In this document: one piece after another, positions 1,676-11,549 of the stretch
Layout: each line of letters begins with the position of its first letter
How positions within the stretch are numbered: the first letter of the stretch is position 1
Assembly (NCBI GenBank): GCA_964399605.1
Contig: CAYNRH010000001.1
Location: 1-43,544 of the forward strand
Reading direction: 5' to 3'
DNA: 43,544 nucleotides
Source of the DNA: an uncultured archaeon
Lineage (GTDB): Archaea; Aenigmatarchaeota; Aenigmatarchaeia; PWEA01; JAGHBM01
The notes under the pieces: generated by a model
Databases searched by the model: none
What the model was told of the DNA's origin: nothing
What the model saw: only the letters and a program-made list of their open reading frames with translations
Translations under genes and position numbers: made by a program

Positions 1676-2848
1676 TTGAAAAGAAAGAATATTCTTGTGG
1701 GAATAGACCCCGGGACAAAAACTGGCATAGCAGTTCTATCGTTAAGGGGAAAGGTCATATCAGTTGAAAGCATGAAAGACATGGGAAAAGACAAAGTAAT
1801 AAAGTACATATCATCTCTTGGATTTCCTACAATAATAGCTACTGACAAATCAAAACCGCCCTCCATGGTTGAGTCTGTTTCCAACAATTTTGGATCAGTT
1901 TTATTCCATCCAGAAAAGGACATAACCAAAAAAGATAAAGCATCTCTGACCAGAAAATATAATCCAAAAGATTCTCACCAAAGAGACGCCTTGGCTGCTG
2001 CATTCTATGCCTTTCGAGAATACAGGGATACCATAAGGAAAATAGAGAGAACAATAGACAACTTAAACCTGTGGAGATATGAAGATGACATAAAGGACCT
2101 CATCATAAGGAAAAAAGCAAGAAACATATCTGTAGCAATAGAAGCTGTTTTTTCAAAGAAAAAAAGAGCAGACAGATACTTAAAAGAGGACAGGAAGCTG
2201 ACACGTGGAGAAGCTGAGCAAATCTTAGAAAAGACCAGAAACCTGCTCAAAGAGAAGGAAAAAATAATTGGAATCCTGGAGAATTATTCGTCTAAACTGG
2301 AGAGAAGATTAAAGGAGGCCGAAGAAAAAAACCTTGAGCTCACCAAGAAATTAGAAAAAATTAAAAAATCCAAGATTCCAAAAAAGAAGGACTATGAAAA
2401 AGTCTCCCTGAGAGAAAGAATAAAAGGGAAAAACAATGAAATAAAAAAATTGCTTCAAAATATAAAAACACTAAAGGAAATTGAAAAAACCAGAAGCGAA
2501 GGACTTGTTCCGGTTAAAGTAATAAATAATTCCACTATTGATGAAATAACCAAGGCGGAAAAAGAGATTGGAATAAGAAATGATATACTTTACTTCAAGA
2601 GATATTCTGAGTTCTCAAAACAATTCATAAGAAAACTTAAGGAAAATAAGGTTGAAATGATAATAGGAAACTTTCCAGACAAAATAAAAAGCGAAATTGA
2701 AAAAAATGGAATAATAGTGCTAAGAAAAGATGACATAAAAATAAAAATATCTGATTCTGTTGGAAAATTATCAAAGGATGATTTAAAAAATCTAAAGAGG
2801 AAAGAGTTTCTCAATTGGCTGAAGAAATATAAAAAGAGGTTTGGTTAA
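1676..2848 (+). CDS. DUF460/COG2433-like protein (predicted RNase H-fold, RuvC/YqgF-like nuclease) with long coiled coil
   Basis: N-terminus ILVGIDPGTKTGIAVL resembles RuvC/YqgF starts. The central part is a K/E-rich coiled coil. TTG start lies 5 nt after GGTGA. Confidence 0.6.
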   Translation: MKRKNILVGIDPGTKTGIAVLSLRGKVISVESMKDMGKDKVIKYISSLGFPTIIATDKSKPPSMVESVSNNFGSVLFHPEKDITKKDKASLTRKYNPKDSHQRDALAAAFYAFREYRDTIRKIERTIDNLNLWRYEDDIKDLIIRKKARNISVAIEAVFSKKKRADRYLKEDRKLTRGEAEQILEKTRNLLKEKEKIIGILENYSSKLERRLKEAEEKNLELTKKLEKIKKSKIPKKKDYEKVSLRERIKGKNNEIKKLLQNIKTLKEIEKTRSEGLVPVKVINNSTIDEITKAEKEIGIRNDILYFKRYSEFSKQFIRKLKENKVEMIIGNFPDKIKSEIEKNGIIVLRKDDIKIKISDSVGKLSKDDLKNLKRKEFLNWLKKYKKRFG

Positions 2849-3350
2849 TTTGGATTTGATAAAAGACAAGAAGCTTAAAGAAACTTTAATATTTTTGGCT
2901 AAACTTGTTCTCCTTTCAATTCCTTTGTATATTGTAATATGGTTCAATATCAGTTTTGCTTTTGCCCAAGATTTTTTGGCCTACCACATATTTCACTTTC
3001 TAAATTTTTTTAACATTCAAGTTTCGAGAGATGGGTTTAACTTGATTTTTCAAAACTTCTCTATAATTATAAATAAGGATTGTATTGGCTGGAAGGGAAT
3101 ATTGTTTTTCTTTGCCCTTGTGCTGTCAACAAAAAGCACATGGAAAAAACGGTTCATAGGGCTGTTCATAGGCATCCCCGCTGTGTTTTCTGTGAATATT
3201 TTAAGAATTGTTTTTATGATTTGGGTCGGATTCAATATTCCAAATACTTTTTCAATATTTCATGACATACTATGGCAGGGTTCAATGATATTTTTGGTAT
3301 TGCTTTTATGGCTCATCTGGTGGAAGGCAACATATTTAATAAATCAATAA
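2841..3350 (+). CDS. minimal exosortase/archaeosortase-family membrane protein (candidate)
   Basis: Polytopic 169-aa protein with ordered Cys, Arg, His candidates in the spacing of the exosortase/archaeosortase triad: INKDCIGWKG, about 42 aa, NILRIVF, about 19 aa, FHDILWQG. Overlaps the upstream stop by 8 nt. Non-ATG start. Confidence 0.5.
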   Translation: MVNLDLIKDKKLKETLIFLAKLVLLSIPLYIVIWFNISFAFAQDFLAYHIFHFLNFFNIQVSRDGFNLIFQNFSIIINKDCIGWKGILFFFALVLSTKSTWKKRFIGLFIGIPAVFSVNILRIVFMIWVGFNIPNTFSIFHDILWQGSMIFLVLLLWLIWWKATYLINQ

Positions 3351-5494: not shown

Positions 5495-6154
5495 ATGGAC
5501 AATAGTTCCGCTGCACTTTCATATATTATAAAAAAACTGGATACTCTGGATAATAGATTGGTATATGTGGAGAGAGTTAATAAAGCTATTTACAAGGGTA
5601 GTGTTGCTAAATCTCAAAAACCAAAGGAAAACAATTCTAGTTTAGAATATACCCTTTATGGGCCACTCTTGAAAATGTCTGAGAATAGAAACATATGGCC
5701 TGATTTGGTATCAGGAGAGCCAAAATGGACAGAGATAACATCTATATACAAGGCATCTCGTATAGTAGGAGAAGAAGATTTCGTATCGCTTACTACGGAT
5801 ATTCCATTTGTACAGTACTTTATGGGTAGTTTAGGTGGCAACTCGATAGCAGATGTCTATGATTTTTATAAACCGTTAAGAGACGATGAAAACTTAATTA
5901 ATTCATTCGCAAAGGTAAACTATGGTATAGATTTAAGTGAAGACGGAAACACTGCAGAAGTATCATACAATGTAAAAAGTGAATTAGATGAATTAAAGAA
6001 GAAACTTGAAAAAACAAATAATACCATAGGAAAAGTAGTATATGAGATGAAACTTATTGAAGGAGAGTTTTCCCTAAATAACGCTGAAAAAATTTATCAT
6101 GGAATAAAAGAGCAAGGGGCCGAGACAGATACTGATGATATGGCTTACCAATAA
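5495..6154 (+). CDS. hypothetical acidic soluble protein
   Basis: 219-aa ORF with GGTGAT SD and an oligo-T tract after the stop. No motif recognised. C-terminal helical K/E segment and acidic tail. Confidence 0.6.
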   Translation: MDNSSAALSYIIKKLDTLDNRLVYVERVNKAIYKGSVAKSQKPKENNSSLEYTLYGPLLKMSENRNIWPDLVSGEPKWTEITSIYKASRIVGEEDFVSLTTDIPFVQYFMGSLGGNSIADVYDFYKPLRDDENLINSFAKVNYGIDLSEDGNTAEVSYNVKSELDELKKKLEKTNNTIGKVVYEMKLIEGEFSLNNAEKIYHGIKEQGAETDTDDMAYQ

Positions 6155-6317: not shown

Positions 6318-6785
6318 ATGAGAATGGTTTTAGAGAAATTAGGATATGTCAAAAAAAGAGATTACGACCAATTAAAAAGACAAATACAAGAATACAAAGA
6401 CAAAGCAGATAATTTTGAGAATGAACTAACAAGATTAAGAGAAGAACTGAGCGGAACTATTGCAGGAATGATACAATTTTTTGGTGAAAACGCTCTTCAG
6501 GCAGCAAGTCAATATAATCTTCAGCGTGTTAATACTACACAAGAAGAGAGAGCTGAAAGGGGGAACAATGATATATCAATTATACCACCAGAAGTGAGAC
6601 AAGAATTAGAATACGAAATGTTTTCAGGGACTAACCCATTTGCTGGATTAACTCTTAAGGCATTGGTTTACATGGCATTATGGGGAGAAAGAGAAGGAAA
6701 AGACAAGTTCAGAAGAGATTATCTATCAGGAAGACTTGGTTCAATCGATATTGGCATAGGAAATATTGTAACAGAAACACAGTAG
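6318..6785 (+). CDS. hypothetical coiled-coil protein
   Basis: 155 aa. N-terminal heptad-like segment (YDQLKRQIQEYKDKADNFENELTRLREEL) and a C-terminal amphipathic/hydrophobic helix (GLTLKALVYMALWG). AAGGGGGA SD. Confidence 0.6.
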   Translation: MRMVLEKLGYVKKRDYDQLKRQIQEYKDKADNFENELTRLREELSGTIAGMIQFFGENALQAASQYNLQRVNTTQEERAERGNNDISIIPPEVRQELEYEMFSGTNPFAGLTLKALVYMALWGEREGKDKFRRDYLSGRLGSIDIGIGNIVTETQ

Positions 6786-6791
6786 AAGAAT

Positions 6792-6810
6792 AGAGATATT
6801 TTTTATCTCT
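6792..6810 (+). terminator. hairpin with T-rich loop downstream of the 6318 gene
   Basis: AGAGATA-TTTTT-TATCTCT, a perfect 7-bp stem starting 7 nt after the stop. Confidence 0.35.
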
Positions 6811-6845
6811 CTAATTTTTATATATTAGTTAGTTTTTAATATTTA

Positions 6846-7433
6846 ATGATATACATGTCAATAATGCTTGCTCAGGCTATGAGTATAGGTGGCTTAAATA
6901 TTTATGATATAATATTCAAGACAATATTACAATTGCCAATGTGTATGGGAGGCTCTGGCTGGGGTTGTATTACAGGAGACATATCTCATGATTTTATATA
7001 TGGACTGTTTATACCTCACGTAGTACTTATCCTGTTTCTTTTTGTAGCCACCAGAGGATTAGGTCACAAAGGATTAGAAACTTTACTAGGAATTGGTGTT
7101 TATGTGTTTATAATTTATAGTGGGTTTTATCCATTCTTTGCAACACTAACGGTAATGTGGTTAGTTATATCTTTATTCATAGCAGGATTTTATTTCTTCT
7201 GGGGTAGAGTTATACATCCCACGAGAAGTAAAGAATTATTTAAATTAGGTTTTTTACAAGCAAAAAATAAAGCAGAAAGAAGAAAAACAGAACAGGCACT
7301 AAGAAGCGACATAAAGTATTTGAGAGAAGAATTGGAAAGAGCTAGAAAAGCAAAAGATAAGGAATCTATAAAGTCAATTTCAAATGCCTTGACTGAGAGA
7401 GAATTGCAATTAAGAGAATTGGAAAGAGGATAA
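6846..7433 (+). CDS. membrane protein with Cys-rich N-terminal motif and C-terminal coiled coil
   Basis: CMGGSGWGC motif, three clear hydrophobic segments, then the charged helix RKTEQALRSDIKYLREELERARKAKDKE...LQLRELERG. Start ambiguous (ATG at 6846, 6855 or 6864). Confidence 0.6.
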   Translation: MIYMSIMLAQAMSIGGLNIYDIIFKTILQLPMCMGGSGWGCITGDISHDFIYGLFIPHVVLILFLFVATRGLGHKGLETLLGIGVYVFIIYSGFYPFFATLTVMWLVISLFIAGFYFFWGRVIHPTRSKELFKLGFLQAKNKAERRKTEQALRSDIKYLREELERARKAKDKESIKSISNALTERELQLRELERG

Positions 7434-7435
7434 GC

Positions 7436-7942
7436 ATGACATACGATACAACAAGTTTTATTACTCAAATCAGTATGGATCCAACGCTTCAGCCATTTCT
7501 TCCATTTTTCTTTGTGCTTGCAATAGTGTATGGACTCTTGTCAATGGTTAACGTGTTTAAAGGCAAGAAGGCTGTAAATTTCATAATATCCCTCGTGTTT
7601 GCATTTTTTGCTGCGGGTTACCAGCCGTTTGTTAGTTTCTTTTTCGCAGAATTTGGATTGATTCTTTGGGCATTTGTAATAATATTTTTCATAGCCTTTA
7701 TTCTTGAGGCAATTGGCTTGAGAGGAAAGAAAAGATTAGCTGAACCAGGAAAGGAAGATTTGCCTATGGTATTTGGCGGTATATCTGTCCTTATACTGGT
7801 AACTATTGGATTCAATTACTTTTCAAACTTTGATATACCCATTATAGGAACTGAAAATCTGTTAATTTTAATTGGATTGTTTTTATTATTGATAATATTT
7901 TACTATGCCTATGAATTTGGCAAGAGTGGCGGACCACAATAA
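7436..7942 (+). CDS. multi-TM membrane protein, paralogue 1 of the tandem array (most divergent)
   Basis: Shares FFFVLAIVYGLL and ISLVFAFF with the next three ORFs. Starts 2 nt after the upstream stop. Confidence 0.65.
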   Translation: MTYDTTSFITQISMDPTLQPFLPFFFVLAIVYGLLSMVNVFKGKKAVNFIISLVFAFFAAGYQPFVSFFFAEFGLILWAFVIIFFIAFILEAIGLRGKKRLAEPGKEDLPMVFGGISVLILVTIGFNYFSNFDIPIIGTENLLILIGLFLLLIIFYYAYEFGKSGGPQ

Positions 7943-7988
7943 TTTAAATAGATAAAAAAACAAGTAAGTAATGAATAGGTGAGATGCA

Positions 7989-8468
7989 ATGGCTTTCGAT
8001 ATAATATCAAGCAACTTTTTTGTTTATTTGTTTCCATGGATGTTGACACTTGCGATAGTCTATGGGATATTGGAGCATTATAAAATACCCCAAAGCCAAA
8101 GTGCAAGGGGAGTCATATCTCTCGTAGCTGCTTTTTTGGTTTTGCCGCTGGCGCCAAGCCTTGCAGCATTTTTGACGGGTATGGTTAAAGGGCTTCTTGT
8201 TGTTGGAGTAGGCATTCTTGTAGCTTTGATTTTTGTTGAACTTCTTGGATACAAGGTTGGAAAAGGAGAAAACATATTTGAAAAATACCCAGTTGAATTT
8301 GGTATAGTCATGATAATAATAGCCATCCTTGTGTTTGTCAGTGCAGGTGGGTTAAAACTTTTGAACTTTAACATAGCCATAGGGGATGATGTTCTGGCAG
8401 CATTGTTCTTTTTGGGTGTCATGGCCTTGGGAGTATGGTGGATGACAGCAAAAGGCAGCGGGGATTAA
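7989..8468 (+). CDS. multi-TM membrane protein, paralogue 2
   Basis: FFVYLFPWMLTLAIVYGILEHYKIP..SARGVISLVAAF...AGGLKLLNFNI...WWM. SD-start cassette AGGTGAGATGCAATGGC. Confidence 0.7.
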   Translation: MAFDIISSNFFVYLFPWMLTLAIVYGILEHYKIPQSQSARGVISLVAAFLVLPLAPSLAAFLTGMVKGLLVVGVGILVALIFVELLGYKVGKGENIFEKYPVEFGIVMIIIAILVFVSAGGLKLLNFNIAIGDDVLAALFFLGVMALGVWWMTAKGSGD

Positions 8469-8518
8469 GAATAGAAAAGTTTTTATACTTAAAAACGTTA
8501 AAAATAAAGGTGAGATAA

Positions 8519-9031
8519 ATGGCATATGGTTTTGGATTGGAAAATATGATGCAAAACAGTTTCTTTGTAATCCTACTGCCATGGCTTTTAACTTTTGCTA
8601 TTGTTTATGGAATCCTACAACATTACAAAATACCAAAAAGCCCGTCAGCAAGGGCAATAATCTCAATAGTTTTTGCATTTTTCACAATACCGGTTGCCGA
8701 ACCATTGATGACAATAATAGGAAATATGGGTGCATCTCTGGTAATTGCTATTACAGGAATTTTGTTTTTGTTGATATTATTTGAGATTACTGGAACCAGA
8801 TATGTGCCAGAAGAACCGAAAAGTGAAGAAGAAATAAAACAAAGAATAACACAAAAATATTATAAGGAATTTACCTTTGGTGTTATAGTTTTAGCTATTT
8901 TGATTTTCATAGGAGCTGGAGGGTTGCAGCTTTTAGGCATAACAATACCATCCATAAATTATCCACTATTGTTTTTCTTTGCAGTAATGGTTATAGTAAT
9001 AATATGGATGGTGACGAGTGAGAAAAAATAG
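8519..9031 (+). CDS. multi-TM membrane protein, paralogue 3
   Basis: FFVILLPWLLTFAIVYGILQHYKIP..SARAIISIVFAF...AGGLQLLGITIP...IWM. SD-start cassette AGGTGAGATAAATGGC. Confidence 0.7.
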   Translation: MAYGFGLENMMQNSFFVILLPWLLTFAIVYGILQHYKIPKSPSARAIISIVFAFFTIPVAEPLMTIIGNMGASLVIAITGILFLLILFEITGTRYVPEEPKSEEEIKQRITQKYYKEFTFGVIVLAILIFIGAGGLQLLGITIPSINYPLLFFFAVMVIVIIWMVTSEKK

Positions 9032-9039
9032 GTGATAAT

Positions 9040-9594
9040 ATGGCTATACCAATTACAACAACTGGAATGGAGAGGGTTTTTGGCACTGAGTTCTTTATAT
9101 ATGTTTTGCCGTGGCTTTTTATTTTTGCAATTGTTTATGGTGTTTTAAGCCACGTTGGCAATAAGGGGGTTCCGGAAAGCAAACCGGCAAGGGCAATAAT
9201 TGGAATGGTGCTTGCGTTCATAGTTACACCTGTTTTGGCACCATGGGTTGGAAACTTGATGGAAATGACTGGAATATTCATGGTAATAATTGCAGTACTT
9301 TTGGTATTTATAGTGCTTTTGGAAATATTGGGAATAAAAACAACAAAAACAATTACTATAAAAGATAAGGATGGAAATAAAAAAGAAGCTCTTGTACCAG
9401 TTTCAATATTTGAAAAATATGGAGTTGCGTTTGCTATTTTATTTATAATAATAGCAGCACTGGTTTTCATGGCGGCAGGTGGTTTAGAAGCAATTGGAAT
9501 TACAATACCACCTATTGTGGCTTACAACTACCCGCTAATATTCTTCCTGATATTCATAGCACTTTTAATATGGTGGATGTCTTCAGAAAGTTAA
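9040..9594 (+). CDS. multi-TM membrane protein, paralogue 4
   Basis: FFIYVLPWLFIFAIVYGVLSH...PARAIIGMVLAF...AGGLEAIGITIPP...WWM. SD-start cassette AGGTGATAATATGGC. Confidence 0.7.
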   Translation: MAIPITTTGMERVFGTEFFIYVLPWLFIFAIVYGVLSHVGNKGVPESKPARAIIGMVLAFIVTPVLAPWVGNLMEMTGIFMVIIAVLLVFIVLLEILGIKTTKTITIKDKDGNKKEALVPVSIFEKYGVAFAILFIIIAALVFMAAGGLEAIGITIPPIVAYNYPLIFFLIFIALLIWWMSSES

Positions 9595-9599
9595 ATCCT

Positions 9600-11012
9600 T
9601 TATTTTTTTAGAATTTTCCATCTTGGTCCATTTGGGCTATCTTCTAAAGCGATATTATATTCTTTTTTGAGTTTATCTCTTATTCTATCAGCCCTATCAA
9701 AGCTTTTTTCCTTCCTCAGGCGTTCGCGCTCTTCTATGAGCTTTCTGGCTTCTTCTGGAAGCTCTTCTGTCTCCTTTTTAAGAATTCCAAGAACTTCGTC
9801 AAATTGTAGCATTGTATCATATATCATTTTGGCGTCATTGGTGCTAATCTCCATGGAATCGATGAGCTTGTTTACTTCCTTGACGAAAAGAAATATTGCA
9901 GCAAGAGCACCGGGGGTGTTCAAATTATCATCCATTTCTCTTTCAAACTTGGATTTAACATCTTCTATCAACGTTATTACTTTCTTATTGTCTGATGAAT
10001 TAGATTTCCAGCTCTTAAGCTTGTCCATGAAGTCAAAAAGGTTTTCAAGAGTTTCTTCTGCCTGCTCCAGGCTTTTTATTGTGAAGTTCATTTGAGTCCT
10101 GTAATGTGCTTTAAGATACAAAAAACGGAGAGCCTTAAGGTCAAATCCCTTTTCTTCTAAATCTTTCAAGGTGTAAAAGTTTCCCTTTGACTTTGACATT
10201 TTTGTTCTGTCAACCAGAAGATGCTCACCATGTATCCAATATCGAACAAATGTTTTGCCAGTTGCTCCCTCTGATTGTGCAATTTCATTTTCATGGTGTG
10301 GGAATATCAGGTCAACCCCTCCGATGTGAATGTCTATTGTTTCTCCCAGGTAATATGTGCTCATAGCAGAACATTCAATATGCCATCCTGGCCTTCCCTT
10401 TCCCCATGGGCTCTCAAAGTAAATGCCTCTTTTCAATTCTTCAGGAGTGCTTTTCTTCCATAGGGCAAAGTCACCGGGATTCTCCTTATCATATTCATCA
10501 ACATCAACACTCGCACCTGTTTTTACATTGCTCAAATCTATTTTCGACAGCTTGCCATAACCCTTAAATTTTGAAATATCGTAGTAAACACCATCTTTCT
10601 TCTCATAGGCAAATCCCTTCTCCTCCAGTCTCTTTATCAGCTCAATCATTTGTGGAATGGTTTCAGTTGCCCTGGGATAAAGAGTCGCCCTCTTTATGTT
10701 TAGTTTGTCCAGACCTTCAAAGAATATATTTGCATATTTTTCCGTAAAATCCTTCAAGGACAACCCTTCTTCTCCTGATCTCTTAATAGTCTTGTCATCT
10801 ATGTCTGTTATATTCATCACAAATTTTACCTTGTAACCTTTATAAAGAAGATATCTATAGATTATGTCAGCTAGGAAAAAGCTTCTGAAATTCCCTATGT
10901 GAGGATAATCGTAAACAGTGGGGCCGCAAGCATACATCTTGACCTCCTTGTCGTGTAGCGGCTTAAAAACTTCCTTTTTTCTTGTTAAAGTGTTGTAAAA
11001 TTTTAGAGTCAT
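9600..11012 (-). CDS. cysS: cysteinyl-tRNA synthetase
   Basis: Class I HIGN (YPHIGNFRS) and KMSKS motifs, 470 aa, end-to-end CysRS layout. Confidence 0.95.
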   Translation of the reverse strand: MTLKFYNTLTRKKEVFKPLHDKEVKMYACGPTVYDYPHIGNFRSFFLADIIYRYLLYKGYKVKFVMNITDIDDKTIKRSGEEGLSLKDFTEKYANIFFEGLDKLNIKRATLYPRATETIPQMIELIKRLEEKGFAYEKKDGVYYDISKFKGYGKLSKIDLSNVKTGASVDVDEYDKENPGDFALWKKSTPEELKRGIYFESPWGKGRPGWHIECSAMSTYYLGETIDIHIGGVDLIFPHHENEIAQSEGATGKTFVRYWIHGEHLLVDRTKMSKSKGNFYTLKDLEEKGFDLKALRFLYLKAHYRTQMNFTIKSLEQAEETLENLFDFMDKLKSWKSNSSDNKKVITLIEDVKSKFEREMDDNLNTPGALAAIFLFVKEVNKLIDSMEISTNDAKMIYDTMLQFDEVLGILKKETEELPEEARKLIEERERLRKEKSFDRADRIRDKLKKEYNIALEDSPNGPRWKILKK

Positions 11013-11269
11013 TTTTTCTTCCCCACTATATGGAACGTATATATGATTTCAAAGAGAACAACCAAAAGAATTCCCAAATTCAGAAAAAGAAAAACAGGAT
11101 CATTTTTTAAGAAAGAATAATAAATCAGCATTAATACACCTATAGATGTTATAATACTAAATCTCAATTCTATCAAATTTTTATGAGATTTTATCTCATC
11201 CCTTAAACCAAGTATCCAGGCAAGCAGAACTAATCCGCCACCGATGACTCCTATCAAAACTCCCAACAT
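11009..11269 (-). CDS. small 3-TM membrane protein
   Basis: The track ORF starts at a TTG (11278). ATG at 11269 follows GAGGTT. SIGVLMLIYYSFLKNDPVFLFLNLGILL resembles LAB_N/PQ-loop-like small membrane domains (speculative). 4-nt overlap with the cysS start. Confidence 0.5.
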   Translation of the reverse strand: MLGVLIGVIGGGLVLLAWILGLRDEIKSHKNLIELRFSIITSIGVLMLIYYSFLKNDPVFLFLNLGILLVVLFEIIYTFHIVGKKK

Positions 11270-11295
11270 ATTTAACAACCTCTTGAACTAAATTT

Positions 11296-11525
11296 TGGAG
11301 CGGGGTCTGGGATTTTCCAACCCCGAGGAAGGGGAAGTATCCCCTTCCTAAGGGATTACTATCCCCTCTAAATTGGCAAACCAAAGGTTTGCAAATAAAG
11401 GAAAGGTAGATATTCCCATAAGGAGGGAAACCTTGGTGTCCCTCCGTAGGGTTTTGAACCCAGGTCTTCCGCTCTGCAGGCGGATGCATGAACCATTTCA
11501 GCTGCAAAGTCTCTGCCAACCCCGC
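11296..11525 (-). tRNA. tRNA-Cys(GCA) with a 140-nt insertion in the T loop, a probable 14-nt insertion in the D loop, and encoded CCA
   Basis: Minus-strand read: GCGGGGT-TG-GCAG...ATGC-A-TCCGC-CTGCAGA-GCGGA-AGAC-CTGGG-TTCAAA[140 nt]T-CCCAG-ACCCCGC-T-CCA. Acceptor (7 bp), anticodon (5 bp) and T (5 bp) stems are perfect once 11313-11452 is removed. Anticodon GCA at 11475-11477. This is the only GC-rich island in the window. Confidence 0.75.
11313..11452 (-). other. putative non-canonical tRNA intron (T-loop position about 59/60)
   Basis: Removal restores CTGGG-TTCAAAT-CCCAG. The junction is ambiguous within the AAAA present at both borders. Contains perfect hairpins GGAGGGA/TCCCTCC, GCAAACC/GGTTTGC and GGAAGGGGA/TCCCCTTCC. 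ACCC (5' border) can pair with GGGT (3' border), as in a relaxed bulge-helix-bulge. Confidence 0.6.
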
Positions 11526-11549
11526 ATATTCAATAAATTGTTATATGAA

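Follow-up and report, generated by a model that had tools for sequence, protein, structure and literature searches.

An old and conserved array of five membrane-protein genes in Aenigmatarchaeota, often found beside a type IV filament locus

The five-gene array and its paralogues

The stretch of DNA analyzed here (the window) comprises positions 1 to 43,544 of contig CAYNRH010000001.1 of an uncultured archaeon of the Aenigmatarchaeota (assembly GCA_964399605.1), with a G+C content of ~36%. Five consecutive genes on its + strand, lying between positions 6846 and 9594 and named A to E here, encode an undescribed family of integral membrane proteins and make up an old operon kept under selection; no description of this membrane-protein array was found in the literature. 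From their genomic context, we propose with moderate confidence that the five proteins assemble in the membrane as a hetero-oligomer, an accessory sub-complex of the DPANN type IV filament (TFF) machine. The open reading frames (ORFs) had been picked out in an original prediction made from the DNA letters, and their coordinates, strand and lengths are confirmed (Table 1), as are the 2-nt gap between A and B and the assignment to a small-genome host: the organism is a DPANN archaeon, and the complete genome of one relative that shares the array measures 833 kb.

C, D and E are clear paralogues in pairwise BLASTP (C/D 42% identity, E-value 8e-36; D/E 37%, 8e-32; C/E 36%, 1.5e-26). B is a more distant one, matching C, D and E at 31–49% identity over parts of the sequence (E-values 1e-5 to 1e-6), so the four tandem paralogues originally described stand as three close members and one remote member. 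A is unrelated to B–E, both by BLASTP and when the B–E profiles are aligned to that of A with hhalign. Each of B–E has five predicted transmembrane (TM) helices, in agreement with the earlier count of hydrophobic segments, and a common glycine/alanine-rich core with FAIVYG in TM1 and AGG in TM4. All four contain the motif AIVYG[ILV]L, and [SP]AR..I[SG].V.AF, AGGL, the WWM/IWM ending and the three loop sequences quoted in the original prediction were found as given; of the LPW motif ascribed to three copies, the other details hold, but C has FPW in place of LPW. The invariant positions, in D numbering, are A27, G31, I48, F54, E89 and G134, which are small packing residues and a single Glu, the latter (E89) at the predicted cytoplasmic end of TM3; nothing among these residues looks catalytic.

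Table 1. Genes and expression signals of the array in the window
Feature	Position	Strand	Description
Gene A	6846..7433	+	195 aa; leads the array in 29 loci
Gene B	7436..7942	+	168 aa, five TM helices; always first after A
Gene C	7989..8468	+	159 aa, five TM helices, shortest TM3–TM4 loop; second position
Gene D	8519..9031	+	170 aa, five TM helices
Gene E	9040..9594	+	184 aa, five TM helices, longest TM3–TM4 loop; last operon gene
Hairpin AGAGATA-ttttt-TATCTCT with T-run	6792..6810	+	Terminator-like; read from the sequence
TATA-like box TTTTTATATATT	6815..6826	+	Putative promoter element, centred ~25 nt upstream of the ATG of A
AGGTGA Shine-Dalgarno site of gene C	7977–7982	+	
AGGTGA Shine-Dalgarno site of gene D	8508–8513	+	
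AGGTGA Shine-Dalgarno site of gene E	9030–9035	+	Within the end of D

Conservation, gene order and selection

The order A-B-C-D-E, with one-to-one positional orthologues, is found in the closed 833-kb genome CP070662.1, in two ~95-kb contigs and in L007, a 92-kb contig with ~95% identity to the window. The GTDB species representatives, when scanned, yielded 38 loci, of which almost all belong to Aenigmatarchaeota; Nanohaloarchaea have related arrays too. Annotation with hidden Markov models (HMMs) places A, then B, then two to three C/D/E-type copies in almost every locus with enough flanking sequence; A is carried by 29 loci, nearly always with B right after it. With orthogroup HMMs derived from the window clade, position 1 is B and position 2 is C throughout, and D can be told from E in nearer clades; by these models B and C are old orthogroups at fixed positions. 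The original description of the array as amplified four-fold, if taken as a lineage event, does not agree with this, nor with D and E being resolvable as orthologues in nearer clades. Distinct paralogues kept in constant number and order are instead what would be expected of the subunits of one hetero-oligomer, not of an expanding family of variants.

A more trivial possibility is that the array is an artefact, either an assembly repeat that was collapsed or expanded, as raised with the original prediction, or a run of spurious ORFs; nothing was found in its favour. The DNA of the paralogues is just 60–80% identical, and this only over short motif patches, which speaks for neither a recent duplication nor an assembly error, and the same five-gene order recurs across independent assemblies, the closed 833-kb genome included. 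As the genes are also under purifying selection, an artefact is vanishingly unlikely.

The selection is seen in comparison with L007, where dN/dS ranges from 0.13 to 0.37 across A–E (A 0.21, B 0.13, C 0.14, D 0.29). Protein identity to L007 is 96–98% for A, B and C and 87% for D and E, whose differences, indels included, are concentrated in the TM3–TM4 loop and the C-terminal halves. At the DNA level, two divergence hot spots at 8572–9021 and 9172–9621, which take in loop 3 and the C-terminal halves of D and E, have 83–86% nucleotide identity to L007 and 13–15 gap positions, the contig being 94–99% identical to the window outside them; dS also climbs along the array, from 0.04 in A to 0.26 in D. 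The hot spots and the rising dS may reflect recombination, beyond relaxed constraint alone.

Topology of B–E and the variable loop

The mean number of Lys and Arg residues per segment in 28 homologues is 2.0 (loop 1), 5.5 (loop 3) and 1.2 (C-terminus), and 0.4 (N-terminus), 0.0 (loop 2) and 0.1 (loop 4). B–E are thus predicted to have the N-terminus outside and the C-terminus inside the cell; under the positive-inside rule, the variable TM3–TM4 loop would be cytoplasmic because loop 3 is rich in Lys and Arg. The predicted external segments measure only 3–14 aa and are nearly uncharged, with almost no protrusion beyond the membrane. An AlphaFold2 (AF2) model of D likewise has five helices, and A–E together have 23 predicted TM helices.

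The contrast between a conserved TM core and a fast-evolving TM3–TM4 loop, which had been the basis for suggesting an envelope or host-contact module, is borne out, as the loop varies in sequence and from 13 to 38 aa in length. Were this loop displayed outside the cell and diversifying to match hosts, with amplification supplying the variants, its variability would be accounted for, as would the indel-bearing hot spots against an otherwise closely identical contig and the lower identity of D and E than of A, B and C. Such a surface module is nonetheless very improbable: the loop is flanked like a cytoplasmic one and has a mean Lys and Arg content of 5.5, against 0 to 0.4 in the segments predicted to lie outside, the external segments are short and nearly uncharged, copy number and order are fixed and old with no lineage specificity, and dN/dS remains below 0.4. 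An exposed variable loop is therefore disfavoured, whereas an envelope or host-contact module in the broad sense keeps its support from the filament and coiled-coil neighbourhood conserved in most relatives, described below.

The gene A protein

The protein encoded by A begins with ~45 residues that are predicted to be extracellular and hold a Cys pair in the originally noted sequence CMGGSGWGC; three TM helices follow, and the protein ends in a 70-aa charged cytoplasmic coiled coil. The coiled coil had also been proposed earlier, and the C-terminal tail is indeed helical and charged, with AF2 helices at residues 125–194 (pLDDT 78–88). Invariant residues are C41, H74, a Y91-S92-G93 motif, R121 and P125. 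As the orthologues start with MS[VIL]MLAQ, the true start of A may be the ATG at 6855. Homologues of A come from Aenigmatarchaeota only, amounting to 12 proteins in a word-indexed search.

An archaeal lipobox at the Cys of A was considered and rejected: positions -3 to -1 read LPM, LPE or LHQ in the alignment of A proteins, none of which conforms to the published rule [LVI][ASTVI][GAS]C (PMC12462473). The tail also contains an exact 14-nt direct repeat, AGAATTGGAAAGAG, at 7328–7341 and 7415–7428, which encodes a repeated ELER and is probably mere heptad-like repetition.

Family searches and a resemblance to DUF2070

The original prediction could place none of these proteins in a known family, and nothing significant was found in Pfam, NCBIfam, PADLOC, the PDB or with Foldseek. 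Pfam, NCBIfam and PADLOC searches with A–E and the two proteins encoded upstream returned nothing above threshold, and A–E match no PADLOC model of anti-phage defence. The best result of a sequence profile search of the PDB was a phosphatidylserine synthase at E 0.023, which was treated as chance. Foldseek searches with AF2 models, of D against the PDB and BFVD and of A against the PDB, gave no match with E<0.9, the best one reported for the PDB having an E-value of 4.3. Type IV pilins or archaellins were tried as an identity for B–E and rejected: their N-termini have no K/R-G, each has five TM helices, and there is no globular domain.

Within its own relatives the family is sizeable. A word-indexed search with D returned 38 proteins, all hypothetical, and every named one belongs to Aenigmatarchaeota; an exhaustive profile search covering 1.84 billion representatives gave 670 clusters at 50% identity with E<=1e-3, 147 of them with E<=1e-10. 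Among the 150 matches listed of the 670, lengths range from 96 to 257 aa, the full-length ones being about 160–260 aa. The named members come from Aenigmatarchaeota and Nanohaloarchaeota, the latter being one distant member so annotated.

The sole recurrent weak signal is DUF2070 (PF09843), which is matched at E<=0.1 by 7 of 52 diverse members (best 1.5e-4), the next commonest family being matched by just three. Three examined members align co-linearly and over nearly their full length to positions ~30–195 of the 561 in the profile, and B–E could accordingly be read as free-standing copies of the N-terminal membrane module of DUF2070 that share the function of that family. The seven score at most about 21 bits (17–21 in the three examined), below the gathering threshold of 30 bits, the window's own proteins have no PF09843 match, and proteins rich in TM helices yield compositional false matches; DUF2070 proteins also differ in being ~560 aa long and single-copy. 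A common origin and function with DUF2070 is thus given a slim probability, and the resemblance of several members to ~165 N-terminal profile positions is kept as a lead, not as a family assignment. As DUF2070 is itself uncharacterised, such an origin would point to no mechanism and could hold alongside any of the other explanations considered here.

Association with a type IV filament locus

Clustering of all ORFs of the collected loci uncovered a recurrent layout around the array. It starts on the + strand with Dph5, DUF357, one to three acidic coiled-coil soluble proteins and then A, B, C, D and sometimes E, continues on the opposite strand with two coiled-coil proteins, c2 (~258 aa) and c5 (~132 aa), and ends on the + strand again with a ~750-aa T2SSE ATPase followed by a ~700-aa polytopic protein. 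The ATPase has a T2SSE match of E 3e-12 and is FlaI/CpaF-like; the polytopic protein has near-threshold T2SSF matches (E 3.5e-5), which mark it as a TadC/FlaJ-like platform. The genes after the platform start with class III signal peptides, such as MIDEKG-SSFLFIIVV, which are pilin-like in having KG followed by a hydrophobic stretch. Judged by these sequence features, the block beside the array in the relatives is a true TFF system.

The association was counted from both sides. From that of the array, c2/c5, the T2SSE ATPase and the TadC-like gene lie within 6 kb in 24 of 36 judgeable loci, nine others are of a CysRS type confined to one clade, the window included, and three have neither neighbourhood. 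From that of the ATPase, the family is represented within 7 kb in all five sampled loci (L047–L051): L048 (Nanohaloarchaea) and L051 have an array, L049 and L050 have one or more members nearby, and L047 has a remnant. The linkage is kept through rearrangement in L042 and L043 and is present in Nanohaloarchaeota QJJ-9. The closed genome CP070662.1 has the CysRS-type layout. Genomes of the window clade may keep the TFF locus elsewhere; among the best 120 of >3,469 TFF ATPase homologues, none lies on the 833-kb, 92-kb or 64-kb contigs.

An ATPase/TadC/coiled-coil protein (CCP) TFF locus is known to be conserved in cluster-2 DPANN, including Aenigmarchaeota, and has been proposed to act in DPANN-host interaction (Hamm et al. 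2024, Nat Commun; PMC11291902). The ~750-aa CpaF/FlaI-like ATPase, the ~700-aa TadC-like platform and the two coiled-coil proteins in most relatives here, across Nanohaloarchaeota and Aenigmarchaeota, match these loci, while the array in the window differs in being detached from the locus. The array of A–E is unmentioned in the main text and available supplements of that paper; the TFF locus had been reported before, and the sources searched give no account of the set of five membrane-protein genes next to it.

Two further observations were made on these loci. In L047 (CP070801.1, a 1.05-Mb Aenigmatarchaeota genome), a 68-aa ORF at 7468–7674 corresponds to TM4–TM5 of the B–E family (E 6e-9) and directly adjoins the T2SSE ATPase and coiled-coil genes. 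An 1821-aa gene on the opposite strand seems to have displaced an array here, of which this ORF would be the remnant. Some DPANN TFF ATPases are far longer than the usual form, at 912–1778 aa (L026 4218–9554 and proteins P0246, P0299 and P0315). PF14890 is carried by P0246, P0299 and P0315, and P0315 also has PF14528; both are intein/homing-endonuclease families, by which these long ATPase genes are read as intein-interrupted.

Proposed role and competing explanations

As an accessory part of the filament machine, A–E would be five subunits of one hetero-oligomeric complex in the cytoplasmic membrane, expressed from a single operon in which A, with a TATA box of its own, would be leaderless and ordinary Shine-Dalgarno (SD) sites would serve C, D and E. 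B–E would probably pack next to one another as a pseudo-symmetric body in the membrane, to which A would contribute three TM helices and its cytoplasmic coiled coil, an arm on which the cytoplasmic coiled-coil proteins or the ATPase might dock. The machine itself would comprise the FlaI/CpaF-like ATPase, the TadC/FlaJ-like platform, the two cytoplasmic coiled-coil proteins and the pilin-like proteins with class III signal peptides, with A–E serving as stator, scaffold, alignment element or conduit and not as the filament. In the window clade, the operon would have moved off the TFF locus to its present place beside CysRS and stayed under purifying selection.

Several observations weigh against this proposal. 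TFF genes are absent from the whole 43.5-kb window; the array adjoins CysRS in nine related loci, so it persists without TFF adjacency, and where it does lie beside the ATPase it is never in the same transcription unit, two opposite-strand genes standing between them. No sequence or structural likeness of A–E to any TFF component was found: hhalign of the B–E and A profiles against the alignment of the TadC-like platform (c4) gave a probability of <=1.3%, and Pfam gave no T2SSF (PF00482) match. To our knowledge, no known TFF system has polytopic five-TM paralogues as subunits, and the monomer models are of moderate quality, with pLDDT values of 73 (the mean for D) and 63. The housekeeping genes Dph5 and DUF357 are likewise syntenic with the array, so the linkage could in part be explained by gene order inherited within one phylum.

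The main rival explanation is that A–E are an autonomous membrane complex unconnected with the pilus machine, for example a channel or transporter for ions or small solutes or a factor in envelope or lipid biogenesis, whose proximity to the TFF genes would be inherited gene order. The window clade, which keeps the operon under purifying selection beside CysRS with no TFF gene within 43 kb, fits this explanation, as does the equal synteny of Dph5 and DUF357; the invariant Glu at the end of TM3, together with 23 TM helices, would suit an ion or solute path, and there are weak matches to known transporter folds (MFS, MarC, TauE and SMR-like), all of them below threshold (E 1e-3 to 1e-2, 16–18 bits). 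This explanation is credible but less likely than the TFF role, as the linkage with the ATPase and coiled-coil genes spans two phyla and local rearrangements and holds in all five ATPase-anchored samples, while gene order otherwise decays at such distance; no transporter family reaches threshold, and the operon comes without an ATPase or substrate-binding partner.

A bolder version of the accessory sub-complex makes A–E core TFF subunits of a kind not recognised before and not known from any bacterial or archaeal TFF system, in which the four five-TM paralogues and a coiled-coil anchor would surround the TadC-like platform as a stator or conduit at the contact between symbiont and host, with the TM3 Glu taking part in ion coupling or gating; this is regarded as unlikely.

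Comparison with known systems

Small membrane proteins beside an ATPase and a platform are familiar from ArlX/FlaX, FlaF/FlaG, PilN/PilO and GspL/M, which are membrane-anchored, have in some cases cytoplasmic coiled coils as A does, and are scaffold, stator or alignment elements, not filament. They differ in being single-pass proteins with soluble domains, whereas B–E, with five TM helices each, are nearly devoid of soluble parts, and no sequence or fold similarity between them and A–E was found. In architecture, the array may be likened to the FliP/FliQ/FliR export gate of type III secretion, in which small, hydrophobic, structurally related subunits encoded in a fixed tandem order build one hetero-oligomeric body; this is an analogy only, with an unrelated machine and no homology. 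Tandem paralogues with five TM helices are also known in Gram-positive bacteria as the TIGR01218 'tandem five-TM protein'; only B matches this model, at chance level (E 0.023; 14.5 bits, the cutoff being 35), and it belongs to another domain of life.

DPANN archaea rely on contact with a host cell, and the TFF and coiled-coil locus is the leading candidate for the contact machinery. Its known parts, namely the ATPase, the platform, the coiled-coil proteins and the pilin-like proteins, leave unexplained both its anchoring and what passes through the membrane. The array offers concrete and testable candidates for the missing membrane core: four to five polytopic proteins in fixed order, shared by two DPANN phyla and not lost even from ~0.8-Mb genomes. 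A sizeable protein family (the 670 clusters given above) that has no Pfam model is also now defined.

Transcription unit and translation starts

The hairpin and the TATA-like box (Table 1) both lie upstream of gene A, after the stop codon (6783–6785) of the coiled-coil gene that precedes it. The hairpin would terminate transcription and mark the boundary of the unit, and the TATA-like box would act as promoter; the same TTTTTATATATA element is present upstream of A in L007, L001, L010 and L015. As A has no SD site and the TATA-like box lies close upstream, this gene probably opens the operon and is (near-)leaderless. The simplest reading is a single operon with a leaderless first gene and SD sites on internal genes. 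No structured RNA was found inside the array when the window was scanned for tRNAs and with Rfam, the latter at its gathering thresholds.

In the original prediction C, D and E shared an upstream AGGTGA[GT]A..ATGGC, from which it was concluded that the ribosome-binding site and Met-Ala start had been copied along with the gene. The pattern fits exactly for E only, the spacing from AGGTGA to ATG being 6, 5 and 4 nt in C, D and E, and the idea of a co-duplicated cassette fails, since (A/T)AGGTGA is the generic SD of this genome: motifs of this type precede 13 of 47 plausible window genes, including unrelated ones at 1676, 5495, 14059, 17767 and 22434. The DNA upstream of C, D and E can be aligned at the SD only. 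In related genomes the orthologous C, D and E have the SD variants GAGGTA, GGAGG or GGTG, or none, and as the duplications predate those lineages, this also argues against co-duplication. The Met-Ala start is a trait conserved in the protein family and not part of a DNA cassette.

Surrounding genes and further observations

The neighbours in the window are archaeal housekeeping genes, namely those for Hef/ERCC4, DUF460, an archaeosortase-like protein, FtsY, diphthine synthase, CysRS and ribosomal protein S3Ae. The CysRS gene is convergent with E and stops 5 nt beyond it. Upstream of A, two soluble proteins, one of them coiled-coil, are encoded at 5495–6154 and 6318–6785. This position is occupied in relatives by one to three highly acidic, coiled-coil-rich and poorly conserved proteins, and the first of the two in the window has a dN/dS of 0.76 relative to L007, with few changes.

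At 2841–3350 lies the gene for the archaeosortase-like protein, a small (169 aa) member of the archaeosortase/exosortase family, which is found upstream of FtsY in relatives too; it passes the TIGR04178 family signature (53 bits) and falls under the specific cutoffs for ArtB, ArtE and pacearchaeosortase. An 89-aa protein with two to three TM helices is encoded on the minus strand at 11009–11278, directly downstream of CysRS and overlapping the CysRS start. It has a weak LAB_N (PF07578) match (E 3e-4) and holds the same position in five related loci.

An intergenic, GC-rich RNA candidate of ~225 nt was observed on the minus strand at 11301–11525, with a minimum free energy of -103 kcal/mol (z = -5.8). 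Its closing stem, GCGGGGUU/GACCCCGC, is followed by UCCA, like a tRNA acceptor end with an encoded CCA, and 80 nt (11451–11530) are 100% identical in L007. ARAGORN predicted no tRNA in the 43.5-kb window, and Rfam gave a sub-threshold tRNA match at 11442–11509 (22.3 bits, against 29). The candidate could be a tRNA that is atypical or contains an intron, perhaps with the anticodon CAG.

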